64,000 bases of DNA, taken from NCBI GenBank assembly GCA_021846685.1, contig JAJZWL010000001.1:387-64386 (forward strand), read 5' to 3'. The stretch comes from a bacterium (GTDB lineage Bacteria > Patescibacteriota > Dojkabacteria > JAKAPS01 > JAJZLI01). Positions 5,010 to 64,000 of the stretch are shown here, piece by piece. The first letter of the stretch is position 1. Every line of letters begins with the position of its first letter. Below the pieces are notes generated by a model. That model was not told where the DNA came from. It saw only the letters and a program-made list of their open reading frames with translations, and did not search any database. Position numbers and translations under genes: made by a program.

Positions 5010-5636
5010 TTATTTAGTAGTAGATAAAGTACTTTTATTCGTGCTACCGGTAGAACTTCTAACAGCAACTAAAAGATTAATTACTGCTTTCTTATATAAA
5101 TTCAGATCTGTAATTTCATTTTTCATATCAGTATTAAAAGCTAATATTTGTGTTTGAGGAGCAGAGTTATTACAAGAAAAATTACCAGAATCTAAACTAA
5201 ATTGATTTAATTGACCTTGAGCTGTATCTTGAGCTGTCAAAACAGCTGTTGATAAAGTTGCATAATTTGAAACTACAATACCTTTAGGCAAAAGAGAGTT
5301 ATTATAATAATCCTGAACCCTAGAAACAATAGTAGAGAATCTATTAATTATATTATTTGATAATTCATATAACTTTTTATCTCTATTTTTAACACTAGAT
5401 GCAATTTTGATGCATGCAGTTTGCAATCCATTCCCTGAGTGAGAAGTTCCAGCCCCCTTAGCACTACTAGCATTCGATCCATTTGTGGATGCAGCACTAG
5501 CATGAGAAGAAGCAGTACTTACATTATGAGAAGAAGCATTCCTTGAGTTAGAAGCAGCTGTTGATCTAGCATATACAGCTCCAGCGGAAACAGCTAATAC
5601 AAGAACAGTTACAGGTAATAAATATTTCAATTTCAT
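5010..5636 (-). CDS. Secreted Ser/Ala-rich hypothetical protein.
   Basis: Signal-peptide-like N-terminus (MKLKYLLPVTVLVLAVSAGAVYA), followed by low-complexity Ser/Ala/Asn-rich sequence. The region is locally GC-richer than its surroundings. Confidence 0.45.
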   Translation of the reverse strand: MKLKYLLPVTVLVLAVSAGAVYARSTAASNSRNASSHNVSTASSHASAASTNGSNASSAKGAGTSHSGNGLQTACIKIASSVKNRDKKLYELSNNIINRFSTIVSRVQDYYNNSLLPKGIVVSNYATLSTAVLTAQDTAQGQLNQFSLDSGNFSCNNSAPQTQILAFNTDMKNEITDLNLYKKAVINLLVAVRSSTGSTNKSTLSTTK

Positions 5637-5727
5637 ACTCTAAATTATAGCAAATCTAATTTTTATGTCCAGAGTTCTTACTATAGTACTATTGTCACAA
5701 GGATAAATAATAGTATAATAAATACAT

Positions 5728-5889
5728 ATGGAAAAAAAATTAAAAATAACGATAAGAGATATAGTCATAATAATTCTTTTTTTAGTAATTATTTATCTTA
5801 TTTACAAAGATTATTCTGTTAATTCAAAATATGTAAGTTTAAAAAATAGAATACAAACTCATTCATCTAGCCTTGTTCCTAAAATATAA
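5728..5889 (+). CDS. Possible small membrane protein, 53 aa (own translation; below the ORF-track cutoff).
   Basis: ATG followed by a hydrophobic stretch (IVIIILFLVIIYLIY). Could be spurious in AT-rich DNA. Confidence 0.2.
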   Translation: MEKKLKITIRDIVIIILFLVIIYLIYKDYSVNSKYVSLKNRIQTHSSSLVPKI

Positions 5890-5930
5890 GTTTCATAGAT
5901 CCCTTTTATAAATGTGATATAATTTATTCT

Positions 5931-8126: not shown

Positions 8127-8260
8127 AGACGTATAGGGATTTGCGAATACATATGTTTATATTTAAGTACTAAAGCGATCTTTAATAAATTTAAAGAATT
8201 ACAAAGCAAATGATTTAATATTTTTCAAAAACCTCTATCAATAAAAATATACTCTTAATA

Positions 8261-8290
8261 TTGATAAAATAATATAAAGTATGATACTAT
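8261..8290 (+). promoter_or_regulatory. Putative sigma70-type promoter upstream of rplY.
   Basis: TTGATA (8261-8266), an 18-nt spacer, then TGATACTAT, an extended -10 (TACTAT at 8285-8290). Confidence 0.25.
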
Positions 8291-8300
8291 TCTCTTGTTT

Positions 8301-8948
8301 ATGAAAGACAGTATAAAGTTAGAAGCTCAAAAAAGAATACTTACTGGGAAAAAAGTTTCTCAATTAAGAACTGAAGGAAATATTCCTGCAGCTGTATTTG
8401 GAATTAATGGAAATCTGAATATAGTATTGAGTAAAAAGCTTTTTATTAAAACTTATGAGAAAGCTCAATACACATCAATAATAGACCTAATACTAGAAAA
8501 AACAAACCACAATGTTCTTATCTCAGAAATACAAGTACATCCAGTAACAAATGACGTATTACATGTAACTTTTCAAGAGGTCTCTTTAGAGAAAAAAGTT
8601 AATAAAAATGTTCCAATAGAACTTACAGGAGAAGCTCCTGCTATAAAAACATATAACGGAATATTAGTTCACTCACTTCAAGAAATTGAAATAGAAGCTT
8701 TACCTATGAATATTCCACAAAGTATAAAGGTAGATATTTCTGTATTAGAAAATATAGGTGATTCTATTCTTATAAAAGATCTTGTATTAGATGAGAGCTT
8801 AGAATTGGTTTCAAAAGATGAGGATGATATGGATATTGCAATAGTCACAATTTCACCTCCTACAGAAGAAGCCGAGGAAGAAGAGGGGGAAGTTTCTCCA
8901 GATGATGTAGAAATCATAAATGAGAAGAAAGAAGAAACTCCAGAATAA
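8301..8948 (+). CDS. rplY: Ribosomal protein L25 / general stress protein Ctc.
   Basis: N-terminus MKDSIKLEAQKR...GNIPAAVFG is typical of L25/Ctc, and there is an acidic C-terminal tail. The ORF track starts at a TTG (8295); the ATG at 8301 is the more likely start. Confidence 0.8.
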   Translation: MKDSIKLEAQKRILTGKKVSQLRTEGNIPAAVFGINGNLNIVLSKKLFIKTYEKAQYTSIIDLILEKTNHNVLISEIQVHPVTNDVLHVTFQEVSLEKKVNKNVPIELTGEAPAIKTYNGILVHSLQEIEIEALPMNIPQSIKVDISVLENIGDSILIKDLVLDESLELVSKDEDDMDIAIVTISPPTEEAEEEEGEVSPDDVEIINEKKEETPE

Positions 8949-9049
8949 TACAATAAAATCTATTGTCCACCTAAATACTATTTTATATATAAGTAATATA
9001 AAATATAAATAATATCTAATAATATCTATCGAGTAAAAAGAGTTTCTAC

Positions 9050-9250
9050 TTAAAAATTCTTTGCTTTTTCTATTACTTTTTCAACATCATCTACAAAATT
9101 AGGCAAAGAGTTATATATGCTTATAGCAACTAATTCATTATAGGCATGGGATGTTAAATTTCTTTGTTTTAAGTATTCAAACCAGGTATCTATATTATCT
9201 ATAAGACCCAATCTCAATGCATCTCTAAATATATTTTTAGAACCATACAC
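9050..9250 (-). CDS. HEPN-domain protein (HI0074-like), possibly N-terminally truncated; starts at GTG.
   Basis: The Rx4-6H motif appears as RNLTSH. It is 66 aa from the first canonical start. Its frame stays open upstream for about 30 more codons, overlapping the MNT gene, with no start codon in that stretch. Confidence 0.5.
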   Translation of the reverse strand: MYGSKNIFRDALRLGLIDNIDTWFEYLKQRNLTSHAYNELVAISIYNSLPNFVDDVEKVIEKAKNF

Positions 9251-9270
9251 ATCTCTAATTCCATTATTTT

Positions 9271-9552
9271 TTAAGATTTCATATATGAATTTCCATGAAA
9301 GCTCGAAAGTAAATTCATTTGTATTGAGGCATCTCTAATTATTGTATTTTCCGGTTCTTCTAATGCATCTTTAAGTTTCACCCATTCTCTAGGAGATACT
9401 TTATTTTTCCCATCAAAGCCTATATCTATATCAGAAAATTTATTTCTATCACTTGTAGCAGAAGAACCAAAGATAAATATTGAGTATTCATCTTTGGCAA
9501 CTATATTAAATATGATATTTCTAATCTCATCTATTATTTCCTTATCTAACAT
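9271..9552 (-). CDS. Minimal nucleotidyltransferase (MNT, HI0073-like) antitoxin-type protein.
   Basis: GSSATSDRNKFSDIDIGF is a GS...DxD polymerase-beta-like nucleotidyltransferase motif. 93 aa. Immediately upstream of the HEPN gene. Confidence 0.6.
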   Translation of the reverse strand: MLDKEIIDEIRNIIFNIVAKDEYSIFIFGSSATSDRNKFSDIDIGFDGKNKVSPREWVKLKDALEEPENTIIRDASIQMNLLSSFHGNSYMKS

Positions 9553-9681
9553 AGCACTATAATATCACTATTTAACAGAATTTTAGCAAATTATTAATAT
9601 CGTAAGATCTAAATATGGATTTTTTAGATATTAATAACATAGAAATCCACAATAAGAAGAAGGGGCTCTATTAGTATAAAT

Positions 9682-10080
9682 TTATTTAAGGATATAGTTT
9701 TTATAACATGACACAGAAGCGCCTACACCATTCCCTTGAACAGTAAAATTAACAACTTCTGGACTACTAGGTTTTTTAAATTTATTTAAATAGTTAATAG
9801 CCTGAGTTCTATAATAAGTACACGGGGTACCAGTTATACTTACAAATAAGCTTTTCCCTATTTCATCTACACTAAATCCAGACAAAGAAACTGGAGAAGA
9901 TTTGGCATAATATTTTTTTACAGAGACATTACTTTTATGGTTAGTCTTTACATTATTATTTTTACTAAAAGAGAGAAACATGCTAAAAAATATTATTGCA
10001 ACAAAGATAATAATAGAAATAATTATATATATAAAATTGTGTTTTACTTTATTTAAATTCATGACGATGTAAAATTGCAA
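9682..10080 (-). CDS. Small N-terminally membrane-anchored extracytoplasmic protein; last gene of the large same-strand block.
   Basis: Single TM helix (IYIIISIIIFVAIIFFSMFL) followed by a soluble domain. Overlaps the upstream gene by 22 nt. Confidence 0.45.
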   Translation of the reverse strand: MQFYIVMNLNKVKHNFIYIIISIIIFVAIIFFSMFLSFSKNNNVKTNHKSNVSVKKYYAKSSPVSLSGFSVDEIGKSLFVSITGTPCTYYRTQAINYLNKFKKPSSPEVVNFTVQGNGVGASVSCYKNYILK

Positions 10081-10856
10081 GTCTGTAAGTATGCTAAGTA
10101 ATAAGCATATACGCTATTTGCATATGCTGTAGCTTGCGGACCTCCTCCATTAGGATCTTCATAATAGATCCCACCACCTCCGTTGTACTTAGTAGAAGCA
10201 TTTAATAATTTTGCTTCTGTCCACTGCTTTATATTTGTAACTCCTACAGAGCTATCAAGATAAATACTTGCCCCAATCATTGAATCAAGAAATATACTCT
10301 GATTAATCCCCAAACTATATATATTGGGGAAATTTGAACTTAGAATGGTTGATACCCCAGAAACGTATCCTGCCCAAGTAGAAGGTTCAAATTGATAAGG
10401 GCCTGGTGATGTTGGATTTGTATCAGGATAATAAATAGATTCTATATTAGAAATTGATCCATGTGCTATCGTTCCATTAAATAAACAATTTGGGCCACTT
10501 TCTTGTCTTTTTTCTGCAGCTAAATATGCAGGAGGGATATTCATTAGTGTCCCTACTGTACTATATACAGATAATAAATTAGTAGACAAATGACAGTACC
10601 CCCCATTTAAACCAGGGGTAAATAAGCTTGAATTGCAAGCTGCACTTGGGGTGAGAGTTCCCGGAGGGATAGTTCCTGCAGATGCATATACTGACCCTCC
10701 CGGATTATTATATTCCGTTAAGGGAACCGCACACCAAGGTTGCACTTCTGATGTTACGGCATAGATATTTTTAGGATGGAGTATGAAAATAGCTACAACT
10801 ATTATAAAAGTTGCGATAAAAATATTTTTTACAGTTTTAATGTCTTTATTTTCCAT
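10059..10856 (-). CDS. Membrane-anchored secreted protein with a possible lytic-transglycosylase (SLT/GH23-like) motif.
   Basis: N-terminal TM helix. QESG...GPYQFEPSTWAGY resembles the SLT E-S ... GLMQ ... TW signature. The call is tentative. Confidence 0.35.
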   Translation of the reverse strand: MENKDIKTVKNIFIATFIIVVAIFILHPKNIYAVTSEVQPWCAVPLTEYNNPGGSVYASAGTIPPGTLTPSAACNSSLFTPGLNGGYCHLSTNLLSVYSTVGTLMNIPPAYLAAEKRQESGPNCLFNGTIAHGSISNIESIYYPDTNPTSPGPYQFEPSTWAGYVSGVSTILSSNFPNIYSLGINQSIFLDSMIGASIYLDSSVGVTNIKQWTEAKLLNASTKYNGGGGIYYEDPNGGGPQATAYANSVYAYYLAYLQTCNFTSS

Positions 10857-11539
10857 TGGTTGTTATATTTTTTAAAAGTTACGCTCATATTCCGAGTATA
10901 CTGGTTTACTCCCCCATTTCCACTATCAAGAGTTAATACGTATTTATATTCTACAATATATTCTTTATTTTGAATATATTTTAATATTTTAATATTTTCT
11001 AAAGAAGGATAAGCTAATAAGAACTTAGTATAATTATTAGCAAGATAGGCTTGCATAGAATTATCATTAGAGTATAAAAATGCAGGAATAGAGTAGAAAT
11101 GCTCAATTAAGTATGCTTTATAGTTAACCAGACTTGATTGATTTTGAGGATAAGGAATATTATATATGTCATAAGAGAGGTAATACCCTAGATATATTGG
11201 GTTATTATAATTTTTCCCTGTATAGTTATTAGGGGATTTCATGAAATATTCTTTATATGAATTTGTATTTTTGTAGTATTTAAAGTATGTAATGCTCCCA
11301 GTAGCTATATTAACATTAGTTGAAAAAATAGTATTGGAAAAACTTTGAGTAGTAAATAATTTCTCACTTGGAATACTCCCAGAGATAGGCCCAATTTTGC
11401 TAAAAGCAATGTTTTTATTTATTGTATTTTGATAGGGTTTTTCCCCAATAAAGAATGACATGATAAAAATCAAAACTATTATTCCTAATATTATAAATCC
11501 ATATTGTTTTAAAAAATTTGTAATTTTAACTAAATCCAT
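10829..11539 (-). CDS. Membrane-anchored hypothetical protein.
   Basis: N-terminal TM helix (GFIILGIIVLIFIMSFFIG) and a Tyr/Asn-rich ectodomain. Confidence 0.4.
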   Translation of the reverse strand: MDLVKITNFLKQYGFIILGIIVLIFIMSFFIGEKPYQNTINKNIAFSKIGPISGSIPSEKLFTTQSFSNTIFSTNVNIATGSITYFKYYKNTNSYKEYFMKSPNNYTGKNYNNPIYLGYYLSYDIYNIPYPQNQSSLVNYKAYLIEHFYSIPAFLYSNDNSMQAYLANNYTKFLLAYPSLENIKILKYIQNKEYIVEYKYVLTLDSGNGGVNQYTRNMSVTFKKYNNQWKIKTLKL

Positions 11540-11550
11540 AATAAAGAATA

Positions 11551-13845
11551 TTAATGTAATTGCCCTCCTGCAGGACGTGCGTAGCCAGCTATACAGTATC
11601 CCGAAGATCCCACAAAACTATATGCTGTTCCTGGATTATAATCATAGCATACAGGAATATTTGTATCAGTAACCACATGAATCCCTTGTTGTGGATCTGA
11701 TGCTTCTATATCTGTATAATTGTTTGTTCCATTCCATGTTTTCACTATTCCTACATGACCTACTCCTGGACCATCTCCCGCTACATAATAATAAATCAGA
11801 TCACCTGGAACTACGTGAGATGCATTATAAAAAATGTGTAAAGAAGAGCTTTGAAATTGAGCAAATGTAGTTCTTCCTATATTATTAAATCCACTAGCCC
11901 TATAAACAGCTTGAGTTAAACCTGAACAATCAATTCCATTTCCTTGCCCACCATAAGGAGTACAACTCACAGGGTTAGTTTCTTGATATTTTCCGCCTAT
12001 AAACTTTTCGGCATCACTAATGATATGGGATGATGAATAATTAGGAGTAGAAGGTTTCGAATTTAGAACCTTTAAACAAGCAGATTGACTAAAACTAGAG
12101 TTTGCACCTCCTGTTCCAGAGCTAGCCCCATTACTTGAAGATCCTTGAGTACATGCAAATGGATTGTAACTTCCTAAGTTAGCAGCTACCACTGGGTCAT
12201 TTGAGGATAAAGCTCCTACATATACTAAATATAACAATAAAGGATCTGGAAACTGTGACCTATCTTTAATATAATACTCCCCTTTTGGCAATGGGGCATT
12301 TGTACCTGAATTACTAGAGGTGGAGGCACTATTTGCAAAATATGGTTGAAATTTATGAATATCTAGATTTTGCTGTATTATTGGAGCATCTCCTAACCAA
12401 GGAAATTCATAATTTGAGTTCACAACAGGAGAACCAGTAGTAGATGATGCTCCTGTAGATAAACATGCGACTGAACTACCACTGGGTGAAACTATACTAG
12501 CAGATACATTTGCATTAATACCGATTCCGTCAAAAAGATTAGCCTCTATTTGTTGAGCACTTTTCCCGTTATATGTCCCATTATTCTGCATTGCAGATAA
12601 TACACCCGAATATAAATAATCAGTATTCGGATTAACATACTCACTCCAAGCTTTAAGATTTGTATGTCCAATAGGAGGCCCTTGATTTAAAGATGCTTCC
12701 ATATACCATTCATCTGCAAGAATCCTATTTAATCCTTGTAAATATAAATTCGGGGAAAAAGTATCTGTGTATGTATTTGGGCAAGATCCTACCTTAGAAT
12801 TACAAGTCTCACTTACATTAATAGAAAAAGAATTACTCTGATTTACAGAAGTAGAACTTGATGTGTCTGTATTATTTTGTTGTTTAGTAGGACAGTAACC
12901 TCCTTTAACACTAGGAGCGCCAATAGCAGAAGAGGAAAAGATATTTGTTATACTAGAAAATATATTACCAAAAAAATTAACTATATCAGTAAGTATACTT
13001 AGCCCTCCATTACTTTGTACATATCCTCCAACAGTATTACTATTAGAGCTAGTTGGGTTATACGGACTTCCATAAGGAGCTAAAAGTTTACAAGTAAGCC
13101 CAGAAGAATTATTTGAAGAAGAAGCACAATTAGATTTTAATGCTTGTGAATTTGAAGTATCAAATTGTTGACTAGGCACACTCCCTACTACGGAATTATT
13201 TGGTAATTGCAGTGGATTATATTGATTATTCAATATAAAAGAACTTCCGAGAGTAAAAAGATCTGCAGCTGTTCCTAATGTAGGCACAGGAAAAAATACA
13301 ACTCCTACTGAAGAGCTTTGAGCAGGAGCCGTAATATTTACAGTCCCAGAAGAATTAGCCGTCTTCAATGAAAATGATCCAGTATTAACATTAAATCCTC
13401 CTAAACCAGAGACTCCTTTTGCAAGGGCACTAAAATTTACATATGGATCTATTCCCATCTTTTCGACCATATAACCAAAAGGTGTGTATGGATTTCCATA
13501 ACCCCCATTAAATGTAGTTCCGTTAGAGTTAATAGAGTTAAAATAATTTAATAACCCAATACCATTAACAGTTACATTAAATGCATAAGTGCCTCTTCCT
13601 TTTAACGTCTCTACCCCATTTGTATCTGAAATAACATGTAAAGGTACAGATACAGAATATTGCGAAGAAGATGTATTGCATGATGTTGCCATGTGGTTAG
13701 GAAAAGAAAAAGGATTTGCCCCTGCATTTCCACAAACATTTAAAGGCTCAGAGGATGCATATAGTTTCCCAGTTCCTAGAAAAAAAACTCCAAGTATCGT
13801 TATAATTAGGAAATATTTAAGATTTTGTTTTGATTTCAGGAACAT
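11551..13845 (-). CDS. Secreted NlpC/P60-family peptidoglycan endopeptidase with a long Ser/Thr/Asn/Gly-rich N-terminal surface region.
   Basis: Signal peptide. The C-terminal domain has the catalytic Cys in GIDCSGLTQAVY and the His in GHVGIV, the spacing and context typical of NlpC/P60. 764 aa. Confidence 0.7.
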   Translation of the reverse strand: MFLKSKQNLKYFLIITILGVFFLGTGKLYASSEPLNVCGNAGANPFSFPNHMATSCNTSSSQYSVSVPLHVISDTNGVETLKGRGTYAFNVTVNGIGLLNYFNSINSNGTTFNGGYGNPYTPFGYMVEKMGIDPYVNFSALAKGVSGLGGFNVNTGSFSLKTANSSGTVNITAPAQSSSVGVVFFPVPTLGTAADLFTLGSSFILNNQYNPLQLPNNSVVGSVPSQQFDTSNSQALKSNCASSSNNSSGLTCKLLAPYGSPYNPTSSNSNTVGGYVQSNGGLSILTDIVNFFGNIFSSITNIFSSSAIGAPSVKGGYCPTKQQNNTDTSSSTSVNQSNSFSINVSETCNSKVGSCPNTYTDTFSPNLYLQGLNRILADEWYMEASLNQGPPIGHTNLKAWSEYVNPNTDYLYSGVLSAMQNNGTYNGKSAQQIEANLFDGIGINANVSASIVSPSGSSVACLSTGASSTTGSPVVNSNYEFPWLGDAPIIQQNLDIHKFQPYFANSASTSSNSGTNAPLPKGEYYIKDRSQFPDPLLLYLVYVGALSSNDPVVAANLGSYNPFACTQGSSSNGASSGTGGANSSFSQSACLKVLNSKPSTPNYSSSHIISDAEKFIGGKYQETNPVSCTPYGGQGNGIDCSGLTQAVYRASGFNNIGRTTFAQFQSSSLHIFYNASHVVPGDLIYYYVAGDGPGVGHVGIVKTWNGTNNYTDIEASDPQQGIHVVTDTNIPVCYDYNPGTAYSFVGSSGYCIAGYARPAGGQLH

Positions 13846-14683
13846 ATATAAATATAGGTAAAGTTGTAGAATTAATTATATCAGCTTTTCCAGAAAGGAT
13901 ATATATAGGAACAATATAGTTATTTTTAAGATCTATAAAATATCCTTGAGATTGAGATGTAAAAGAAATATTATTTATTGCTAAACTTGTATTTATATAT
14001 GAAAAGGACTTACTCAACGTATTTTTATTTAAATTAAAATTTTGAGGATATCCACGCTTCTTATTTATATTAAAAGGATATATAGAGAAACTTACAGGAA
14101 TATTACTGTCTGTAAATATAAATTCATCATAAAACTTTACTCCATCAGGCTTATATATAAAGTTTCCATTTATTGTAGGATAATAATAAAGAACAGTTTT
14201 TCCGTTTAAAAATTTAATGTTTTTGTAAAAATTCACAGTACCTATTTTAAAATCTTGAGAAAGAATAGTATTTGCATATGTATAGATATTTGTTTTTTTA
14301 GCTTTATTTTTGATTGTATAAAAGTAACTACTATTAGAATATATCAAAGAGTTATTTTTTCCTTGCCAAACAAACTGATTATTAGTACTCGATACAGGAG
14401 GAGAGGATATTCCTAAATTTGAAGCTATTTGATATGGTGTTTTATTAAAAGAAAAAGAATAATATGAACTTCTTTCTGAAGGAAGATTTATAGAAAAAGA
14501 CTGGTTTGTATTATTTATATAATCACTTAAAAATGAGATTTTAGGGACAGAAGGCTTAGCAATTTGTGTTTTAACTGACTTAAGAGGGGTATTTTTTTTA
14601 GTAAAATTAGATCTGAAGTTAAAATACAGATATAAAAGTATTAAAAAAATAGAAAATGGTAATAATAATCTTATATATTTCAT
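13817..14683 (-). CDS. Signal-anchored secreted hypothetical protein.
   Basis: N-terminal hydrophobic segment (LLLPFSIFLILLYLYF) and an Asn/Tyr/Ser-rich ectodomain. 5 nt from the giant gene. Confidence 0.4.
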   Translation of the reverse strand: MKYIRLLLPFSIFLILLYLYFNFRSNFTKKNTPLKSVKTQIAKPSVPKISFLSDYINNTNQSFSINLPSERSSYYSFSFNKTPYQIASNLGISSPPVSSTNNQFVWQGKNNSLIYSNSSYFYTIKNKAKKTNIYTYANTILSQDFKIGTVNFYKNIKFLNGKTVLYYYPTINGNFIYKPDGVKFYDEFIFTDSNIPVSFSIYPFNINKKRGYPQNFNLNKNTLSKSFSYINTSLAINNISFTSQSQGYFIDLKNNYIVPIYILSGKADIINSTTLPIFIYVPEIKTKS

Positions 14684-14687: not shown

Positions 14688-17600
14688 TTATTGTCCTAAA
14701 TATTCTCCTTTATTTAAAATTTCCCCTTTATAAAGGTAAGGATTGGTAGTGTTAATTTTTACAATTCCCGCAGATGTTTTTATAAATACAGTATCTGCTA
14801 AAGAATTTGAGGGATTATTCTGAATATTTACAATTTTTCCAGATGTATATAAAAAGGTTGCAGCATGAGGAGCTCTATGATTAACTACATTAGCAGTATT
14901 ATTATTATTTCCTCCACTAGTAGCTCCAGCCCCCATTAATGACATCATTAATGCCCAGCCTAAAACCATTATAAAAATAGTTCTTAAAAAATCATCAATA
15001 TCAAATTCTCCCTTAAAAAAGAGGGCTATTATTCCTATCAATATATCTAATCCAATAGAGGCAATAGCTGCAGAATGAAAAAACCAACCTGATACAGTTT
15101 GATAGATATTTTTTAAAAAATCACCTATATAATAGAATATTCCATGTTGAAAAAAATATACTAAAAGTGAATTTATGCTCCAAACAGCTGCTCCAACAAC
15201 AACGAATCCTATTCCTCCGGTAATAATCCCTGCTATTCCTGTTATCCCAAAAGCTGCTCCTAATACAAAAGCTCCAATACTTGCCAAAGTGCCCCCTAAT
15301 GCAAATGCAGACATTGTTCCCATAACAAGAGCACTCCAACTTTGAAATGCCGCCATTCCTCCATGTTGAAAAAACAATCCTTCCCAAAAATTAGAAGTTG
15401 TTAATTGAGTATCTAGATATACTAAAAAGGCTGGATCTAAAATTTTTTCACCTACAAACTTAGTAAATCCACCTACTGCCTCAGAGAGTTTACTAGAATC
15501 ACTAATCATTCTATATGTTGCCCAACCGACTCCAGTTCCTACTCCTACAAGAGCACCTCCAATTGGGCCAAAAAGATAACTACCTACAAGATAGCCAAGT
15601 AAACCCGGTGTAAGAGAATCTCCTATGAACTCTGAAGCTTTCCCTATTGTAGCTTTTGATAAAAATGTGTTTAAAGCAGCTGTTTCTGGTTTTATATTCC
15701 CTAATATAGTTAATCCCGTTTTAATTCCTAAATATGCTCCTGTTACTGCAATAAACCCAACAGGAGTAGTAATTCCAAAAATAACTGATAAAACAGCTCC
15801 TCCTATCATTGCAGAATTTAAACTTTTAAATAAGTCTGCAGTAGTAAGATTTAAAGTTTCAGACAAATTTACTTGTGCAGTTACTGCTATTTTCCCTAAA
15901 GAACCCATTCCTGATTGGACTAAAGATTCTCTTATAAGATTTGGTAAATCAATTCCAACAAGACTAGAGTTCAAAAATTCTGAATTGAAGATTGCTTCAA
16001 ATCTTGCAGGATCAGTAAGCAAGAAACTTCTTAAGTTTAAATTTGCTTCAGTTTCTGCATCTAATCCGACTAGATTAGGGAAAATAGTACCTACAGGAAG
16101 ATTTGTATTTGCTAAAAGTTTAAAAAAATCTGATCCTGCAAAACTTGAACTCAGATCAAAACCTTTGAAAATAGAATCATTAAAGCTTTTAATAAAATCA
16201 GAATAACTGGAAGATAAATTTAACCCCCTGTCACTTAAAAATTGACGGAAATCTGTTGTATTTTTAAGACTATCTACTGTAAGCGGATTACTTAAATCTC
16301 CTATACTGCCACCTTTGTCTTCAACAAACTTTATTAACCCTGCTCTCAAAGATTCTGGATTTACAAAACTGGATGCTTCTGGATTTTTTAATACATCAGA
16401 CATTCTATAATAAGAATTCATTTCTTTCGAAACAGCTTTTACTCCAAATTTTGACAAATCTCTTGAATTTACTAAAGATTTATCTATTGCTTTCATATCT
16501 TCCTCAGTAAATCCTGCAATCGATTTTATATCTTCTCTGTAAATTTCCTTTAAAAGATTCTCCATATCTCCTCTTGCATACAGATCAGAAAGAGTTGTAT
16601 CTCTGGATAAATTATCAACAAGAGTGGTATCTAAAAATCGATTTCCTTGGGAGAGAGATTTAAGAAAATCTTCAAATTTCATTTTTTCAGGAATAGTTCC
16701 TAAGTTGGCGGTAGCATCAGTTAAATCCTTACTTCGATATAAAACATCTCTAATATCTGCCCTTGCCCCAAATTTGTCTAAAGCATCTGCCAAATCTTTA
16801 CTCTCCCCAAATTCTTTGAGATAATATGCTTTATCTAGTGCAATTCTATCTAAACTTTCTCTATAAAAAGCACTTGGATCTACACTTCCATAAGTCCTTA
16901 GTAATTCTTGTCTCTCTAATAAGGTATCTGCTCTAATATCTCTAAATTCTTTTGAAATATAATTCAAATCCCAATGATCAATCAAATTAGGGTCATGTAA
17001 ATACTCATACAAACCTTTTTCTCCATAAAATTTATCTAGCATATCTGAGCTATATCCGCTCTCTGCCAATTTATCATAAAGTTGATATCTATCAAGCCCA
17101 GATAAAATTTTAGGATCAAAAACTCCTGGTTCAAATTTTAAATCCACTATGTCGGGGTGAACTATAAACCTAGCCCCTCTTTTTCCAACGATAGTAATTA
17201 TTATACTAGGAACACCTACTGCAATTGCTCCTACTACAGCCCCAATAGGACCAAAAACTGAACCAATCAAAGCCCCCCCTCCTATAAATCCAATTCCAAC
17301 GTGAGAAATATCATATGCAGAAACACCAGAAATATCATGCAAAACAGAATCTTCAAATAAAGAACTTTTAAAGAAATCAGCAATAGAACCACTTACTAGT
17401 CCCACCCCCATAAAACCTAAGAATAAAGGATTCCCCCCAAAAAGAATAAATCCTAAGATCCCAACAATAGCACTTGGCCCTCCAATCTCGAAAAGATATT
17501 CAGATTTAAATAAAAAAGAAGACCTTACAAGATCTGATGCCTCTGTATAGTCTCCAAGAACTTTCCCAACAAAAGATAAATCTACCGCTCTAAAAACAGA

Positions 17601-19367
17601 AGTTACTGCAAATATACCAAGTCCTGTAAACATTAAAGGGATACCACTAATTCCAAAGATTGCAGCAACTATTGTCCCTATAACGGCACTTGTTATTCCA
17701 AAAGTCCCAGTTTTAACTATTAACTCAGGAAGTGATAAAGCCCTGTCTGTCATTGTAGTAGCTATTCTCTGAACCATATTTACTACTAAAGGATTTTGTT
17801 CAGAAAAATATGTGGTAAAGTCTAAAAAGAATTTAGATCCAAAATAAACAGAACCTACAATTACCCCTCCTACAGGAGACGACATAGCTATTCCTGCTAA
17901 CAATCCTGGAATTAAAGCCTCGAATCCATCTTTCAACATCATTTTTGCCACTCCAAAACCAAACCTTACTCCATCAAGAGAAGTTAATAATCTTCCAGCT
18001 AAACCTTCCCCATCAACATTCCTTAATAAGGAATATGTTATTCCTTGTTCATCTCCAACATACTTTGCTACTTCAAATAGAGCTTTATCTACAATACCTC
18101 TTAAAAAAGCAAATACAAAAGCAGGAGCTAAAACTATAAAATCTAAAAATTTTAAAAGATTTTTTCTCTTTCTTTTTGAAGGTCTTTTGGTCGCTTCTAT
18201 ATTTTTTATTCCCCTGAGTCTTTTCGACAATTTCGTATTATTTATTGTGTTTGAAATAAATTGCCTGCGCGTAAATTTACCTGTATTTTGATTTGGAGAT
18301 AATTTATTTAGTTTTTTACCAAAAGCATCTTCATAATTATCTGAAAATCTTTTTTCTCCAGAAAAATTATTACTTAAATCTGCCCATAAAAATCCTGATT
18401 TAAATTTTGAGCGTAAATTTTTTCTTTCAGGATAAATCAATTTTTGAACTTTTCTGTATCCTGTAAGTTTTGCAGAATCAGAAGACCTAACCATTCCTGA
18501 TTTCTTCGAATTAGCTAATGCAGTAAGTAATCCATAATAAGAACGTGAATTCTCTTCAACAAGACGCCTGACAAGAGGATTGTCTCCTTTGGCAAATTCT
18601 GCAGAAATCTTTGCATACTCAGAACTTTTTGAGCTTACAGAAGAAAATACTAGAGTTCTTTCCCAGTTATAGACAACCTTCCAAGAAGATGGTACAGAAA
18701 AAATTTTAGATTTTTTCCTCTTTCTGTGAGCATTGTTATCCATAACAAATTCCCACAAATTGTAATATTTAAAATTTTTATTACGAAGAGGAGCAACACT
18801 TATATCTACACCTTTATGATCTTTTAACAGCTGAACTTTCCCATCAACAGTTATTGGTTTCAAGTTTTCATCAAGAGCATACATATATCCTTTTGTATAT
18901 AGTGTTTGTAATTGTTTTTCTATTGCGGCTATATATATTGGGGCTCTATTTTTTAATGCTCTTTGTAATCCTTCTACTCCTGTTACATATTTTCTTTTTG
19001 AACCACTAACAGATTGTGGGTAAAAAGTTTTTGATATAATTGGGGCTAAAGATTGAGCCAAGAGGTATGCTTCTCTTTCTTTAAATTTTCTTCTATAACT
19101 TGCACTTAAATGTTTTGAAAAATCTCTATTAAGATTCTCTGCTATTGTAAGTTGTATGAATCTTTTAACTTGAGACTCTTTAACAATGGGAGAAAGTTTT
19201 TCTATTAATTTTCTAGGAACAACCCTTGTATCCCTATACTCCTGAACATATTTTGAAAGATTTATTCTATTTAAAGTAAGATCCCTTTTAAGATCAATTA
19301 CTGTGTAATATTGATCTGTGTATAAAGAGGTTATTAAATTTGCTAAGTCCGATAAATCATATTTCAT
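14688..19367 (-). CDS. Giant (1559 aa) polytopic glycine-rich membrane protein of unknown function.
   Basis: Uninterrupted ORF. It has a basic K/R-rich N-terminal region of about 400 aa and two bundles of Gly-rich TM helices (about residues 410-730 and 1090-1500). An acidic Asp/Leu-rich soluble domain of about 350 aa separates the two bundles. No ATPase motifs. Confidence 0.6.
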   Translation of the reverse strand: MKYDLSDLANLITSLYTDQYYTVIDLKRDLTLNRINLSKYVQEYRDTRVVPRKLIEKLSPIVKESQVKRFIQLTIAENLNRDFSKHLSASYRRKFKEREAYLLAQSLAPIISKTFYPQSVSGSKRKYVTGVEGLQRALKNRAPIYIAAIEKQLQTLYTKGYMYALDENLKPITVDGKVQLLKDHKGVDISVAPLRNKNFKYYNLWEFVMDNNAHRKRKKSKIFSVPSSWKVVYNWERTLVFSSVSSKSSEYAKISAEFAKGDNPLVRRLVEENSRSYYGLLTALANSKKSGMVRSSDSAKLTGYRKVQKLIYPERKNLRSKFKSGFLWADLSNNFSGEKRFSDNYEDAFGKKLNKLSPNQNTGKFTRRQFISNTINNTKLSKRLRGIKNIEATKRPSKRKRKNLLKFLDFIVLAPAFVFAFLRGIVDKALFEVAKYVGDEQGITYSLLRNVDGEGLAGRLLTSLDGVRFGFGVAKMMLKDGFEALIPGLLAGIAMSSPVGGVIVGSVYFGSKFFLDFTTYFSEQNPLVVNMVQRIATTMTDRALSLPELIVKTGTFGITSAVIGTIVAAIFGISGIPLMFTGLGIFAVTSVFRAVDLSFVGKVLGDYTEASDLVRSSFLFKSEYLFEIGGPSAIVGILGFILFGGNPLFLGFMGVGLVSGSIADFFKSSLFEDSVLHDISGVSAYDISHVGIGFIGGGALIGSVFGPIGAVVGAIAVGVPSIIITIVGKRGARFIVHPDIVDLKFEPGVFDPKILSGLDRYQLYDKLAESGYSSDMLDKFYGEKGLYEYLHDPNLIDHWDLNYISKEFRDIRADTLLERQELLRTYGSVDPSAFYRESLDRIALDKAYYLKEFGESKDLADALDKFGARADIRDVLYRSKDLTDATANLGTIPEKMKFEDFLKSLSQGNRFLDTTLVDNLSRDTTLSDLYARGDMENLLKEIYREDIKSIAGFTEEDMKAIDKSLVNSRDLSKFGVKAVSKEMNSYYRMSDVLKNPEASSFVNPESLRAGLIKFVEDKGGSIGDLSNPLTVDSLKNTTDFRQFLSDRGLNLSSSYSDFIKSFNDSIFKGFDLSSSFAGSDFFKLLANTNLPVGTIFPNLVGLDAETEANLNLRSFLLTDPARFEAIFNSEFLNSSLVGIDLPNLIRESLVQSGMGSLGKIAVTAQVNLSETLNLTTADLFKSLNSAMIGGAVLSVIFGITTPVGFIAVTGAYLGIKTGLTILGNIKPETAALNTFLSKATIGKASEFIGDSLTPGLLGYLVGSYLFGPIGGALVGVGTGVGWATYRMISDSSKLSEAVGGFTKFVGEKILDPAFLVYLDTQLTTSNFWEGLFFQHGGMAAFQSWSALVMGTMSAFALGGTLASIGAFVLGAAFGITGIAGIITGGIGFVVVGAAVWSINSLLVYFFQHGIFYYIGDFLKNIYQTVSGWFFHSAAIASIGLDILIGIIALFFKGEFDIDDFLRTIFIMVLGWALMMSLMGAGATSGGNNNNTANVVNHRAPHAATFLYTSGKIVNIQNNPSNSLADTVFIKTSAGIVKINTTNPYLYKGEILNKGEYLGQ

Positions 19368-19376: not shown

Positions 19377-20036
19377 TCAATCATAATTATAATAAAAAAT
19401 ATTCTCAAAATAAGTCCTATTTGCATAAAAATTATTAATATCTGTTTCTGAGAAAACCCCATTTGAAAATATTTGATACAGAGGATATAAAATGCTATTT
19501 TCTTCTACATCACTAAAAAAAGATAAATCTCCTCCAAGTTCTGTATATTTTCTTATTTTAGAGAGAATAATACAATTCTGTATATACTTAAACCCTCCTA
19601 ATTCTTTATATTTTTCTATAAATCTATAATTAGCATCCATTGTTATTTTTAATCTTAAATCTAGATTATCAAAATTCTCTATTGATATTTTAGCTTCATT
19701 TTCTATTGAAACAGGATTATTTCCTTCATAAATATTATTGTCAATCATAATGGAGTACCCTTCTTTAGAGAAGAATAGATTTAGAAAATCTTTTTCAAAG
19801 AATTCATATAAGAAAGATAGATTTCCCTTATTTTGTGTTTGTATATATGTATATATTGCCCTATATAGATAATCATATAAAGGTGCTTCTAACTCATCTA
19901 TCGAAGAGGTCATATCTTCTAATTTTCGAAGTAGAAAATCTTCTATTTCAGGATATTCTTCTAACCCTTTTATAAAATCTACAAAAAGATAAAAGTTATA
20001 TCCAAATTTATTGTTATAGTAATCTCTAAGTAACAT
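19377..20036 (-). CDS. Acidic soluble hypothetical protein, probably translationally coupled to the upstream polytopic-protein gene.
   Basis: The ORF-track start (20078) overlaps the upstream gene by 43 nt. The internal Met (MLLRDYY...) gives a 1-nt stop/start overlap. No TM segments. Confidence 0.4.
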   Translation of the reverse strand: MLLRDYYNNKFGYNFYLFVDFIKGLEEYPEIEDFLLRKLEDMTSSIDELEAPLYDYLYRAIYTYIQTQNKGNLSFLYEFFEKDFLNLFFSKEGYSIMIDNNIYEGNNPVSIENEAKISIENFDNLDLRLKITMDANYRFIEKYKELGGFKYIQNCIILSKIRKYTELGGDLSFFSDVEENSILYPLYQIFSNGVFSETDINNFYANRTYFENIFYYNYD

Positions 20037-21586
20037 TATGCTCCTGAACTTACTGCTTTTCTTGCAGAACCTGCCCATTTCCTAACGCTTCCATATGGGC
20101 CTTGGAATCTATTCTTCAATTCTGAAGAGTAAGAAGAGAAGTCGAACCCTAATGCCTTTGTAGCATCCGCTATAACCTTAGGAATAAGAACGAAGACTGC
20201 AATAGCTAATAAAAGAGAAATTGTTTGCGAATTACTATTTGTTAACAATTGACCTAAACCTAACAAGGGTAAAGAATTTCCATTTGTAAAACCTGGAGCA
20301 TGTTGCAAAAAATATATAAGATTAAACATTGTATATATTGTCGTATATATCAAAACTGCCTTAATCATTCCTTTAAAGAATGTCCCTATAAATTTAGTCT
20401 GCCCTGGAACTGATCCTGCTAGAAATAGAAATGGAGCAACTACTGGTAAGAATAAAAACATTAGATATCCTTTTAAAAGTTGTATTACTATCTTAAATGC
20501 AGTGAAAAGAAGTATTACTGCAATTATAAAAACAATAATCCCAGATATAACCACATTCTGCCCTGCAAATTTCCCTAAATCCACAATAAGTGTTTCTAGT
20601 ATCCCTTTAGAATGAACCTGAGAAAGAGTTATGCTCGCCCCATTCAAGAATTGCTTTGTTGTAGTAAATGATACATCTCCATAAACATTAAATATATAAT
20701 TATAAGAGCTAAAAGCACTATGAAATGAACCCGAGGTTAAGTTTCCATTTAAAGCTGAGAATGCAAAATATATAAATCCCAAAAGTATATTCATTAAGTC
20801 AACCATAAATCCTCCTATTGCATAACTAAAAGTTATAAGAATTACTGCCGCTACAATATTAGGAAGTGCACTTAAAAAAGTAATCGGGACTTGTCCTCCT
20901 ACCTTTCCACCTATAATAATCATGATTCCTGTAAATAAAATCACCAAAATTAAAAGTAAAAATGAAATATTTCTAGCTACTGCCCACAAAGGATATACTG
21001 GAGACAAGAAAGAAAATCCATAGACAGGGCCACTATAATTAGTAGCTGCGAATGTAGAATTTGAATTTGTTGCTTTATGGTAAAGATATGCGAAATAACT
21101 TACTCCACTTACTGGAGGATTAGTATATAAATCAGCCATAACAGAACTTGTATCCCCTAATGCTCCATACCCTCCAGTATATTGAAAATTTCTAGATGTT
21201 GCGCCTGGAGAGTTATATTGCGTATAATTTCCAATTATAGCAATAGATCCACTTTGAAAAATAGCAGGGGTAAATCCACAAGATTCCCAAACAGACAATC
21301 CAGATCCTCCAGATGGAGCACAGGTATTAAGAGTTGAAGAACTTCCTGCAAAAACTTGCCCTGCAGCCACAAAGCCAAAGACAAGAAACGCTATTAATAT
21401 TGTTTTTATACTTAAAAAGCTGGTTTTTCTAAAGTTAGTTTCCGCAGATCGTTCTACTATATCTATTGTGTCTCTTTTGTAAATTCCTAATTTTTTGGAT
21501 ATAATTTTTGACTTCAAGAAGAATATTTTATATTTTAATTTTTTTTCTTGAATTCTAGATTTAATAGAGTGTGTTAATTTATTCAT
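20036..21586 (-). CDS. Polytopic membrane protein with VirB6/TrbL-like topology: signal-anchor, extracytoplasmic domain of about 110 aa, then at least six TM helices.
   Basis: Hydrophobicity pattern read from the translation. The extracytoplasmic region is Ser/Gly/Thr-rich with two Cys. The similarity to VirB6/TrbL is topological only. Confidence 0.4.
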   Translation of the reverse strand: MNKLTHSIKSRIQEKKLKYKIFFLKSKIISKKLGIYKRDTIDIVERSAETNFRKTSFLSIKTILIAFLVFGFVAAGQVFAGSSSTLNTCAPSGGSGLSVWESCGFTPAIFQSGSIAIIGNYTQYNSPGATSRNFQYTGGYGALGDTSSVMADLYTNPPVSGVSYFAYLYHKATNSNSTFAATNYSGPVYGFSFLSPVYPLWAVARNISFLLLILVILFTGIMIIIGGKVGGQVPITFLSALPNIVAAVILITFSYAIGGFMVDLMNILLGFIYFAFSALNGNLTSGSFHSAFSSYNYIFNVYGDVSFTTTKQFLNGASITLSQVHSKGILETLIVDLGKFAGQNVVISGIIVFIIAVILLFTAFKIVIQLLKGYLMFLFLPVVAPFLFLAGSVPGQTKFIGTFFKGMIKAVLIYTTIYTMFNLIYFLQHAPGFTNGNSLPLLGLGQLLTNSNSQTISLLLAIAVFVLIPKVIADATKALGFDFSSYSSELKNRFQGPYGSVRKWAGSARKAVSSGA

Positions 21587-22717: not shown

Positions 22718-23299
22718 TTAACTTCCTCCGTTATATTCGTATACTAATGGGTATCCTGCTGTGTTTGTAGTAGCTCCTTTAGGTAAAGCAGCTCCAGTTC
22801 CAGTAGAGAAAACCAATATTTTATTTCCTGCTATATTTTCCCCTACATAATAGTTTCCTGCTGGAAGAGATCCCAGATCAGCACTAATTGCAGTATATAA
22901 AGCAGAACCTGTTGTTAACTGTTCACAATCTCCTGCGGCAGTTCCTGTTGCTATAGCAACGGATGCATTAGGAATAGTTCCTGTTCCTGTAACACAATAA
23001 GGTGTCCCAGTAGATGAGCCAGTAACACTAAATCCATATGCAGTAGATGTAACAATTACACTTCCTGAAGAAGGTGTAGGAATCCCAGATGGGTATTGTC
23101 CTTTATTATCAACTGTATATGTCTGAATAGCTTTATATATTTGTTGTATATTACTTTCAGTAGTTGTATTGTTTGCATCTGCAATTCTTCCAATTGGATC
23201 CAAGGCAATAAATACTACTAAAGCTAAAATAGCAATAATAACAATAACTATCAAAATTTCAATCAGGGTGAAACCCTTTTTATTTGTAATTTTTTTCAT
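22718..23299 (-). CDS. Type IV pilin (class III signal peptide), likely major pilin.
   Basis: The leader MKKITNKKG followed by FTLIEILIVIVI gives Gly at -1 and Glu at +5. A strong SD (AAGGGAGGTGA) lies 8 nt upstream; SD sequences are rare elsewhere in the window. Followed by an intrinsic terminator. Confidence 0.75.
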   Translation of the reverse strand: MKKITNKKGFTLIEILIVIVIIAILALVVFIALDPIGRIADANNTTTESNIQQIYKAIQTYTVDNKGQYPSGIPTPSSGSVIVTSTAYGFSVTGSSTGTPYCVTGTGTIPNASVAIATGTAAGDCEQLTTGSALYTAISADLGSLPAGNYYVGENIAGNKILVFSTGTGAALPKGATTNTAGYPLVYEYNGGS

Positions 23300-52210: not shown

Positions 52211-52251
52211 ATATCTATATATTACATTATTTTTACATTTTAGTTAACGTC

Positions 52252-54154: not shown

Positions 54155-54155
54155 A

Positions 54156-59792: not shown

Positions 59793-59795
59793 TAT

Positions 59796-62947: not shown

Positions 62948-63807
62948 TATCTATTATTAACATAATCTTTGATCTCAGTCCATAGTACTGGATCATCTTT
63001 GGCATATTCAAGTGTTGTTTTTAAAAAATTCAAAGGATCTCCTGTGGTTAACCATTTTCCTTGAATTTTTGTAGCTAGGACTTTGTCTGTATGTGTTAAT
63101 TTTGAGATAGCATCAATAAGCCATAGTTCATTATTTTTACCTAGTTCTTTCTTGCTTAATTCCGATATAACATCTTGATTCAATATATATCTTCCAAAAG
63201 AAGCTAAATTTGATTTTGCATTTTCTATCTTAGGTTTTTCAATTACATTATTAACAGTAATCCCATCTTTTTTTAATTCTACATTACTATATTTATTAAC
63301 TTCAGTATGTTCAATTTCTTGTGTTGCAAGAATAACTTTTCCTGGGTGTGTATATGAAAAATCTATTAATTGTTTTGTTGCAGGAATAGTTGCTTTTACA
63401 ATATCATCTCCAAACATATATACAAAATTCTCTTCATCTTTTATTAAATTTTGAGCAACTAAAAGTGGAGTTCCATTTCCATAAGGAAGATGTTTTTTTT
63501 GTCTGACATATATATAGTTAGCTCTTTTGGGCAGCTCTTTCAGCTCTTTTAATATATCTGTTTTTCCATTTTCTCCTAAATATACTTCTAAGTCGATATT
63601 ATTATCAAAGTGACTTTCTATTGCATACTGTCCCCTCGTGACCATTATTATATCTTTTATTCCTGAATCTATCAGTTCTTCTACTAAATATTGAATAATA
63701 GGCTTATTTATTATGGGAAGCATTTCTTTAGGTTGTACCTTTGTTGCTGGCAAAAACCTAGTTCCATATCCAGCTAGGGCAATTACTGCTTTTGTAATTT
63801 TCTTCAT
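62947..63807 (-). CDS. galU: UTP--glucose-1-phosphate uridylyltransferase.
   Basis: AVIALAGYGTRFLPATK and KEMLPIINKP signature blocks. Confidence 0.85.
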   Translation of the reverse strand: MKKITKAVIALAGYGTRFLPATKVQPKEMLPIINKPIIQYLVEELIDSGIKDIIMVTRGQYAIESHFDNNIDLEVYLGENGKTDILKELKELPKRANYIYVRQKKHLPYGNGTPLLVAQNLIKDEENFVYMFGDDIVKATIPATKQLIDFSYTHPGKVILATQEIEHTEVNKYSNVELKKDGITVNNVIEKPKIENAKSNLASFGRYILNQDVISELSKKELGKNNELWLIDAISKLTHTDKVLATKIQGKWLTTGDPLNFLKTTLEYAKDDPVLWTEIKDYVNNR

Positions 63808-63890
63808 ATGAATATTCTATATTATTTAGTATATAAAATGCAAAATTTAACTTTAAATATTATTGTCTTTGTGATATCTTATATTAGTAT

Positions 63891-64000
63891 GGATAGTACT
63901 GAAAAAACACACGCAATACCTCAAAATATAATGAGTGTAGAGTTCAAATTGATAGGAGATTTATCGTTAAAACAATTTGTTTTTATAGCGATCCCACTTG
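63891..64000 (+). CDS. 3-prime-truncated ORF: N-terminus of a small hydrophobic protein.
   Basis: ATG at 63891. The frame is open to the window end (MDSTEKTHAIPQNIMSVEFKLIGDLSLKQFVFIAIPL). Confidence 0.3.

Follow-up and report, generated by a model that had tools for sequence, protein, structure and literature searches.

A putative wall-cutting NlpC/P60 peptidase with exchangeable catalytic heads in an envelope operon of Patescibacteria

The VirB1-type hydrolases of monoderm type IV secretion systems (T4SSs), namely PrgK (pCF10), TraG (pIP501), CwlT (ICEBs1), TcpG (pCW3) and Orf14 (Tn916), are the described proteins with which we compare g5, the product of a gene in a stretch of 64,000 nucleotides from a Dojkabacteria genome of the Patescibacteria (GenBank assembly GCA_021846685.1, contig JAJZWL010000001.1, positions 387 to 64,386 of the forward strand; hereafter the window, from whose first letter all coordinates are counted). 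Like g5, these hydrolases are large proteins of the extracytoplasmic space that carry a hydrophobic segment near the N-terminus and end in a CHAP or NlpC/P60 peptidase domain; their genes are accompanied by those for membrane proteins, some polytopic (VirB6-like) and some with a single helix (VirB8-like). The domain content of VirB1-type proteins varies among monoderms, comprising LytM, SLT or muramidase, CHAP and NlpC/P60 domains (PMC12857230; PMC12102498), and the monoderm VirB1 homologues interact with VirB8-like proteins (PMC12857230). The g5 protein departs from this group in several respects: Pfam, NCBIfam, PDB profile and fold searches found no glycosidase in its residues 31-565, whereas a candidate for that activity is encoded by a separate gene, g7; the N-terminal region that makes up most of the protein (the N-module) lacks relatives beyond the g5 family; the leader looks cleavable rather than like an anchor; the operon to which the gene belongs (g1-g8) lies ~42 kb from VirB4; and the catalytic head of g5 is swapped together with the gene downstream of it.

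A further parallel, by description, comes from the Patescibacteria themselves. The T4SS locus of Ca. Southlakia epibionticum, which is essential for epibiotic growth (PMC10633639), encodes two polytopic proteins of ~1000 amino acids (aa) and an NTF2-like single-helix protein (PMC10633639 Tables S1/S2), in addition to SEML1_0006 (643 aa), with two lysozyme-like domains and a Cys proteinase, and SEML1_0007 (1113 aa), with a C-terminal DD-peptidase (PMC10633639). It shares with the g5 locus a position near the origin, long proteins that have a peptidoglycan peptidase at their end and giant polytopic neighbors. Unlike g5, the Saccharibacteria hydrolases display recognizable lysozyme domains, and their genes are immediate neighbors of virB4 and come with VirB2-like pilin arrays, whereas the g5 clade features prepilin-type pilins upstream. 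How the ultra-small Patescibacteria pass through walls, both their own and those of their hosts, to gain resources is among the central unanswered questions about this phylum. In the one species that is amenable to genetics, the T4SS and the hydrolases next to it are reportedly essential.

On balance, we think that g5 is probably the peptidoglycan-cutting subunit of a T4SS-related envelope apparatus in a small clade of Patescibacteria, and as such that it corresponds in function to the VirB1-type hydrolases and to the essential hydrolases of the Saccharibacteria T4SS locus. Its catalytic domain is unremarkable within a familiar family, but the whole protein is a fresh variation on the theme of VirB1-type or T4SS-associated hydrolases, because it combines an orphan carrier module, a glycosidase and a peptidase seemingly split over two genes, and enzyme-partner units that are shuffled as pairs. 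The locus is a compact, testable system that offers an active-looking NlpC/P60 enzyme, an orphan carrier, a candidate glycan cutter and partners that track the head.

The NlpC/P60 domain and its carrier module

The gene and the parts of its product are as follows (g5 is numbered from the initiator methionine).

11551..13845, minus strand: g5, a complete ATG-to-stop open reading frame (ORF) of 764 aa, from the ORF list
13756..13845, minus strand: leader, Sec-type signal-peptide-like, residues 1-30, with the sequence MFLKSKQNLKYFLIITILGVFFLGTGKLYA and then SSEP
12151..13755, minus strand: N-module, Ser/Thr/Asn/Gly-rich and charge-poor, residues 31-565 (alignments A1, A2)
12691..12747, minus strand: the most conserved motif of the N-module, LYLQGLNRILADEWYMEAS, residues 367-385 (invariant columns of A1, A2)
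12085..12150, minus strand: Gly/Ser/Thr linker and junction at which the head type switches, residues 566-587 (A1 columns ~790-850)
11554..12084, minus strand: NlpC/P60 cysteine-peptidase cassette, residues 588-764 (Pfam PF00877, phmmer, Foldseek)
11926-11928, minus strand: codon of the catalytic Cys640, in the motif GIDCSG (residues 637-642)
11755-11757, minus strand: codon of the catalytic His697, in the motif GHVGIV (residues 696-701)
11704-11706, minus strand: codon of the downstream polar residue Glu714, in the motif DIEAS (residues 712-716)

By profile match and structural model, the C-terminus of g5 is a member of the NlpC/P60 peptidase family with a papain-like alpha+beta fold. The Pfam model NLPC_P60 (PF00877) recovers residues 631-701 with 29.6 bits (E=7.4e-7), more than the 23 bits of its curated cutoff, which the orthologues P0006, P0009 and P0014 also pass; the sister family CHAP scores under its Pfam cutoff on g5. 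In phmmer alignments, GIDCSG and GHVGIV pair with GIDCSGF and HVGIY of Spr/MepS (2k1g, 8xud) and with 3h41 (YkfC-like). The positions of Cys640 and His697 are kept in all NlpC/P60-type orthologues, and the column of Glu714 is occupied by Glu or Gln in all of them, the Pfam and PDB alignments ending before that column. The AF2 model, built with 15 homologues, is of moderate quality over residues 600-764 (pLDDT ~60-83). Its best Foldseek match in the PDB is the catalytic domain of the C. difficile autolysin Acd33800 (9ubf_A; E=7e-4, TM-score 0.69, 25% identity), and the remaining matches are PlyPy, the CHAP domains of LysGH15 and LysK, and the Gsp amidase, such that those at E<0.1 are only NlpC/P60 or CHAP-type amidases. 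A first-pass annotation, made from the letters of the window, had assigned an NlpC/P60 peptidase to an ORF at 11551-13845 and quoted the GIDCSG and GHVGIV motifs with a polar residue downstream. The ORF is found exactly there, all the quoted features are present, and the profile score, the alignment of Cys and His onto the Spr/MepS active site and the match of the C-terminal model to NlpC/P60 and CHAP structures bear the assignment out. From what is known of the family, the domain is likely to cut the stem peptides of peptidoglycan. A protein identical to g5 is present in public collections (P0001). Recoding of UGA, as in the Gracilibacteria-type code, was considered and set aside, the long ORFs being intact under table 11.

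The leader opens with a basic stretch, followed by a hydrophobic core at residues 11-30. Cleavage is suggested because Ala is invariant at -1 (Ala30) in the orthologues and the -3 position is held by a small residue (small or aliphatic in all of them), and the pattern fits signal peptidase I, which would probably cut after Ala30. No second hydrophobic segment is seen, the maximum 19-aa hydropathy being at most 1.46 across all orthologues; a second transmembrane segment within the N-module was rejected on this measure in every one of them.

The region between the leader and the catalytic domain had been described in the first-pass annotation as low-complexity, Ser/Thr/Asn/Gly-rich, Cys-containing and without a recognizable binding domain. 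The composition holds: Ser, Thr, Asn and Gly account for 43.8% of g5 residues 31-560, against 25.8% in the 26 other proteins of the window, and the charged residues Lys, Arg, Asp and Glu for 7.9% against 24.6%. There are 14 Cys in the whole of g5 (the G+C content of the window is ~28%). The absence of a recognizable domain also stands, in that Pfam, NCBIfam and PHROG gave no match for the N-module and the PDB no credible one. The low-complexity label is wrong: the entropy is 3.2-4.0 bits per 40-aa window and the region aligns over its full length with the orthologues, the sole true low-complexity stretch being the linker of residues 566-587 (GSSSNGASSGTGGANSS...). Structure prediction, which that annotation had proposed for the N-terminal region, was of use for the C-terminal domain as described above; the full-length AF2 model (15 sequences) has a mean pLDDT of 52, with the N-module at low confidence and no fold match for it.

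The N-module is conserved throughout, with ~80 invariant positions that include six Cys residues (Cys38, 56, 240, 318, 348 and 355; alignments A1, A2), and we predict it to be a secreted and probably disulfide-stabilized module. The consensus of the orthologues at its main motif is LYLQGLNRILADEWYxEA, and further conserved motifs are IGHT (392-395), FPWLGD (481-486; FPWxG in the orthologues), GEYYI (522-526) and PDPLLLYL (533-540). The conserved core includes the invariant Asp378, Glu383 and His394, and the N-module could conceivably be an undescribed enzyme or a fold that binds the host wall. Its phyletic spread is narrow: a search of 5.8 billion protein clusters recovered 16 relatives of g5, all 750-830 aa long and, where named, from Patescibacteria; an exhaustive run of the N-module profile against 1.84 billion representative proteins gave 10 matches, and a run against 185,579 species genomes found it in eight species. 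The module is lineage-restricted, being limited to about a dozen uncultured lineages.

Candidate matches of the N-module in the PDB, engineered HIV gp41 linker constructs (GGSGGHTTWMEW, duplication-inflated) and BRE1, were rejected as chance, and an hhalign comparison with g7 aligned the signal peptides alone. Some of the proteins P0009-P0016 (A1 columns ~420-520; e.g., P0009, P0014 and P0016) carry a coiled-coil-like insertion of 40-110 aa, rich in Asn, Leu, Thr and Ser, before the LYLQG motif, and this insertion is absent from g5.

Operon setting and the link to type IV secretion

The other genes of the operon and the chromosomal landmarks are as follows.

20036..21586, minus strand: g1, 516 aa, polytopic membrane protein, the best-conserved gene of the operon
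19377..20078, minus strand: g2, 233 aa, acidic, soluble
14688..19367, minus strand: g3, 1559 aa, polytopic, with two blocks that together hold 12 or more hydrophobic segments and a ~400-aa cytoplasmic N-terminal region
13817..14683, minus strand: g4, 288 aa, one N-terminal membrane helix, its stop overlapping the g5 start by 29 nt
10829..11539, minus strand: g6, 236 aa, one N-terminal transmembrane segment
10059..10856, minus strand: g7, 265 aa, exported, one N-terminal hydrophobic segment
9682..10080, minus strand: g8, 132 aa, one N-terminal membrane helix
24017-25351: dnaA
25662-26798: dnaN
63778..63999, plus strand: start of a PrgI-like (VirB3-like) gene that runs off the window end, matched by phmmer from three PrgI-like proteins

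The eight minus-strand genes g1-g8, which run from 21586 down to 9682 with g5 as the fifth, are separated by gaps of 4-11 nt or overlap by 22-43 nt and constitute a translationally coupled, strictly syntenic operon of envelope type. The gene order is identical in all 14 related loci, where two pilin genes, trx and trmD are followed by g1-g5, one gene, g7 and g8, and then by the L25 gene on the opposite strand; g4 is kept in all of them. The window, which also encodes TrmD, a class I (Leu/Ile/Val-type) tRNA synthetase, ribosomal protein L25, DnaK, enzymes of the pentose-phosphate pathway and a type IV pilus cluster, is chromosomal DNA. The operon lies next to dnaA/dnaN, near the origin, and inheritance of the locus is vertical, at a chromosomal position that does not change. 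None of the g1-g8 proteins has an NCBIfam match or a Walker A motif, and g3 is without a family match in both Pfam and NCBIfam. Scans for promoters and terminators did no better than on shuffled sequence, and Rfam gave no family at gathering score across the 64 kb, tRNA included.

We uncovered a connection to type IV secretion through g1. Its profile (A6) recovers distant homologues in other Patescibacteria with E-values of 1e-34 to 1e-5, and the homology was confirmed by a local hidden Markov model (E=1e-26 to 1e-40). All four of the homologue contexts that we examined are T4SS loci, in each of which PrgI (VirB3-like), a TraC-like protein (TrsD) and VirB4 are encoded downstream within 6-8 kb; VirB2-like T4SS_pilin arrays lie upstream in three of the four, two abut dnaN, and one has an M23 peptidase directly after virB4. 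The genome under study possesses a corresponding module. The public contig L017, which is 99.97% identical to the window end and extends beyond it, continues on its minus strand with the 547-aa PrgI-like protein (8357-10000), a 230-aa gene in the TrsD position (7660-8352) and an 871-aa VirB4 (5036-7651), the Pfam families on these genes being PrgI, P-loop_TraG, AAA_10 and CagE_TrbE_VirB. This PrgI-like/VirB4 module is ~42 kb from the g1-g8 operon. The T4SS genes of Patescibacteria have their relatives in the MPF-FATA class of monoderms and are often found near dnaA/dnaN, and their VirB1, VirB6 and VirB8 homologues are seldom detectable by profile (PMC12102498). In this light, g1-g8 has the appearance of a T4SS module for membrane and wall, with g5 as its peptidase, and the wall and membrane components of such systems in this phylum can be found by gene neighborhood where profile searches fail.

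The first-pass annotation had read the position of g5 within a block of membrane proteins as a sign of a specialized role, either in local wall remodeling for an apparatus or in attack on a host wall. The context supports the specialized role, given the coupled and syntenic operon, the membership of g1 in a family of T4SS loci and the presence of VirB4 in the same genome; the target may be either the cell's own wall or that of a host.

Several observations on these loci stand apart from this argument. The two pilin genes ahead of g1 (22718-23299 and 23365-23895, minus strand), which are followed by thioredoxin and trmD in every relative, are of the prepilin type (N_methyl), whereas the g1 homologue in other Patescibacteria is preceded by VirB2-like T4SS pilin arrays and not by prepilin-type pilins. 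In two of the other Patescibacteria T4SS loci, a ~790-aa secreted protein with 32-38 Cys is encoded directly upstream of the g1 homologue (L015 7611-9986, L016 1040-3385); it resembles g5 in size and character but has no detectable sequence similarity to it and no hydrolase domain. The window also contains an insertion sequence (IS)-type DDE transposase and two AAA_14/DUF4143 ATPase genes (28717-30210, plus strand; 26891-28024, minus strand; 58368-59792, plus strand), and the first of the ATPase genes and the transposase lie just past dnaN, where other Patescibacteria keep the VirB4 module. A rearrangement may have split the T4SS locus near dnaN.

Exchangeable heads and their partners

After residue 565, at the linker, the orthologues display one of three head types: NlpC/P60 in g5 and most orthologues, CHAP in P0015 (Pfam E=2.8e-12, well past the cutoff) and an M23-like domain in the C-terminal ~165 aa of P0002, P0003, P0005, P0007 and P0016, the last of which NCBI names an M23 metallopeptidase. 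The M23-like heads fall below the Pfam cutoff of 28.7 bits (E=6e-4 to 0.03, 15-20 bits), and their profile finds TagE alone in the PDB, at E=1.5. When placed in manual register with a bona fide M23 domain, they have IDQGVD, YVAEC and GIETGW at the His-ligand sites of M23 (HxxxD, HxH), with acidic or other residues for the canonical His, and a conserved WPxW at the end. Judged by these residues, they may be non-canonical or inactive, that is, either degenerate LytM-type domains or a distinct enzyme.

The head types are interspersed on the N-module tree, which implies at least 3-4 head switches: the M23-like P0016 is sister to the NlpC/P60-bearing P0011, g5 (NlpC/P60) is nested among M23-like proteins, and the CHAP-bearing P0015 is nested among NlpC/P60 proteins. 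The P0016 head is 63-73% identical to the heads of the distant M23-like clade, the corresponding N-modules being 43-45% identical, and this disparity suggests that the head was exchanged laterally. Among the NlpC/P60 proteins, heads and N-modules diverge more or less in step.

The gene directly downstream of g5 changes with the head. In all nine loci with a Cys-peptidase head (NlpC/P60 or CHAP), it is a member of the g6 family (229-260 aa), and in all five M23-like loci its place is taken by an unrelated 132-aa gene, g6', whose products form their own subclade within the g8-beta family (51-63% mutual identity). This co-variation, which thus extends to 14 of 14 loci, was formulated as a rule from 11 loci and then correctly predicted the three that were newly fetched. 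On this basis, we infer that g6 and g6' recognize the catalytic domain itself, either as an inhibitor or immunity protein or to activate or position one particular head, because a partner that served only for docking would be expected to contact the conserved N-module and could stay the same whichever head is present; mere linkage between neighboring genes is the weaker alternative. No significant family match was found for g6. Its profile hits an 'immunity factor for SPN' in the PDB over 35 residues (E=0.006), a TcpC/ORF13-like protein in the PDB (E=6.8) and MecA_N in Pfam (E=0.08), all of which are too weak to be more than leads.

The two genes that follow form a second pair. The motifs of g7 (AAEKRQES, GPYQFEPSTW, LDSMIGAS and YNGG; alignments A3, A7, A8) come in an order that we take to match that of the family-1 lytic transglycosylase (SLT) motifs. 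In the deeper alignment, where the context reads AAEKxQES and then GPYQFEPxTW, LDSMIGAS and YNxG, Glu119 is invariant and Ser120 nearly so. Searches of Pfam and the PDB gave no match for g7, no homologues were found outside the clade, and its AF2 model (13 sequences) has a pLDDT of 41. At the level of motifs, g7 is a candidate SLT-like, glycan-cutting partner. It occurs in two subtypes, A (QESG...GPYQFEP) and B (QESTFG...), as does g8 (alpha and beta; loci L001-L020), and g7 A is always found with g8 alpha and g7 B with g8 beta. These pairs are mosaic relative to the N-module tree of g5 and assort freely with respect to its head type; recombination occurs between the pairs and was never seen within one.

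Proposed role, competing explanations and neighboring genes

As a VirB1-type analogue, g5 would leave the cytoplasm through Sec, signal peptidase would probably free it by a cut after Ala30, and its 535-aa, Cys-containing N-module would tether it to the machine or the wall. Its NlpC/P60 domain (Cys640/His697/Glu714) would then cleave the peptide stems of peptidoglycan and g7, if SLT-like as its motifs suggest, would cut the glycan strands, probably alongside g5. Together, they could open a local gap in the wall, which would allow the apparatus, comprising g1, g3, the single-helix proteins g4, g6 and g8, the PrgI-like protein and VirB4, to span it. We posit that the catalytic domain and g6 are one exchangeable unit, and their exchange as a unit would imply that g6 binds the catalytic domain, be it as an inhibitor or immunity protein or as a dedicated positioning partner.

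A set of results weighs against this proposal. There is no ATPase inside g1-g8, and VirB4 is ~42 kb off; the profiles of g2-g8 had no matches in the four T4SS loci, in which g1 alone has homologues; and the link to type IV secretion rests on conserved gene neighborhood because g1 itself matches no VirB6/TrbL model and no solved T4SS subunit in Pfam and PDB profile searches. Moreover, unlike the described Gram-positive VirB1 homologues, g5 is without a recognizable glycosidase domain and is perhaps released rather than anchored, and the SLT-like nature of g7 is without statistical support. A different placement is suggested by the head swapping and the co-varying downstream gene, which make a host-directed role a serious candidate. 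In that case, g5 would be a lytic effector that breaches the wall of the bacterium colonized by this presumed epibiont, perhaps with the T4SS or the pili as its secretion route or acting in parallel to its secretion; g6 or the 132-aa alternative would be its immunity protein and guard the wall of the producer, and the heads would be exchanged to suit the chemistries of host walls or to evade host inhibitors. This overlaps with the VirB1-type proposal, from which it differs in the target wall and in the role of g6, and we regard it as a tentative possibility, on the unlikely side. The layout resembles that of polymorphic toxin and effector-immunity systems (e.g., the Tae/Tai amidases of type VI secretion systems, the LXG toxins of type VII secretion systems and contact-dependent inhibition systems): the N-terminal 75% is conserved, alternative heads are joined at one fixed junction, heads appear to have been switched repeatedly, even between sister proteins, and exchanged between lineages, as with P0016, and the next gene follows the head in all 14 loci, including the three predicted beforehand. 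The N-terminal anchor of g6 is as expected for an extracytoplasmic immunity protein, and the cleavable-looking leader makes release of g5 from the membrane likely. Among phage families, the catalytic domain is closest to PHROG 329 (E=9.5e-11; annotated 'minor tail protein'), a lysin of the virion tail that works on the wall from the exterior, with its NlpC/P60 domain set inside a large structural protein; the match is nevertheless limited to the catalytic domain, no phage genes are nearby, and the g5 locus is chromosomal and conserved. Nor does g5 possess a known trafficking or pre-toxin domain (LXG, RHS, PT-TG or MuF; Pfam), and neither a known immunity family nor orphan cassettes or arrays of heads and immunity genes were detected. 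It is a single-copy gene, vertically inherited at a fixed chromosomal site, one of its head types lacks the canonical His ligands and is perhaps catalytically dead, the immunity role of g6 is putative, and the co-variation of adjacent genes could partly be linkage.

The remaining two explanations take g5 out of secretion altogether. As a housekeeping autolysin in growth or cell separation, it would act under a dedicated membrane complex in the manner of the FtsEX-controlled hydrolases, which include CwlO and RipC (NlpC/P60), PcsB (CHAP) and EnvC (degenerate LytM). The g5 family resembles these in bearing the same three C-terminal domain types, the His-less LytM-like one included, on a long non-catalytic N-region that would couple to a membrane complex; the gene has an origin-proximal place on the chromosome and is conserved by strictly vertical descent in every clade member, and the insertion in P0009, P0014 and P0016 is coiled-coil-like. 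We consider this quite unlikely, as neither FtsE/FtsX nor other ABC components are encoded in g1-g8, the N-module of g5 is not a coiled coil and is absent from all other bacteria, other Patescibacteria included, in profile scans, g1 belongs to a T4SS-locus family that ties the operon to type IV secretion, and repeated swaps of head and partner among close relatives would not be expected if the substrate of the enzyme were the cell's own, conserved wall. It is very improbable that g5 is mainly an adhesin or structural wall binder whose hydrolase-like domain binds rather than cuts. The large Cys-containing extracellular module and the missing catalytic His of the M23-like heads in five orthologues are in keeping with such a function, as are the inactive VirB1 homologues that serve as adhesins, a role proposed for them in some Gram-positive conjugation systems, and PrgK, whose LytM and CHAP domains seem to be regulatory more than catalytic (PMC12857230). 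Against it, the Cys, His and Glu/Gln triad positions are intact in g5 and all NlpC/P60 orthologues, and the CHAP orthologue is well above its Pfam cutoff.

Returning to the role in a T4SS-related apparatus, one can extend it to a speculative and rather doubtful picture in which the 3' half of the operon is a polymorphic wall-breaching kit for epibiotic life. Its two units, the g5 head with g6 or g6' and g7 with g8 alpha or beta, would be shuffled on an invariant T4SS-linked chassis, cutting varied host walls as the partners shield the cell's own. If true, neither Patescibacteria nor the hydrolases associated with T4SSs have been described with such a toxin-immunity logic before; and should the partners be inhibitors, they would be the first hint of an effector-immunity arrangement on a Patescibacteria T4SS. 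The locus could also serve to predict the wall type of the host from genome sequence.

Beyond the operon, the slot between g8 and the L25 gene holds a nucleotidyltransferase (NTP_transf_2/Polbeta; 9050-9250) and an NTase_sub_bind (HEPN-type) protein (9271-9552), both on the minus strand, which likely constitute a toxin-antitoxin module. In relatives, the same slot is occupied by AbiEii or DUF4143-ATPase genes, and it is seemingly an insertion hotspot. Further away, the type IV pilus cluster at 50618-61463 is interrupted by redox and ATPase genes and includes the following.

50618-52210: PilM-PilN fusion, followed by a 477-aa gene without a family match
53654-55104: three minor-pilin-like genes
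55073-56329: PilC
59796-61463: PilB

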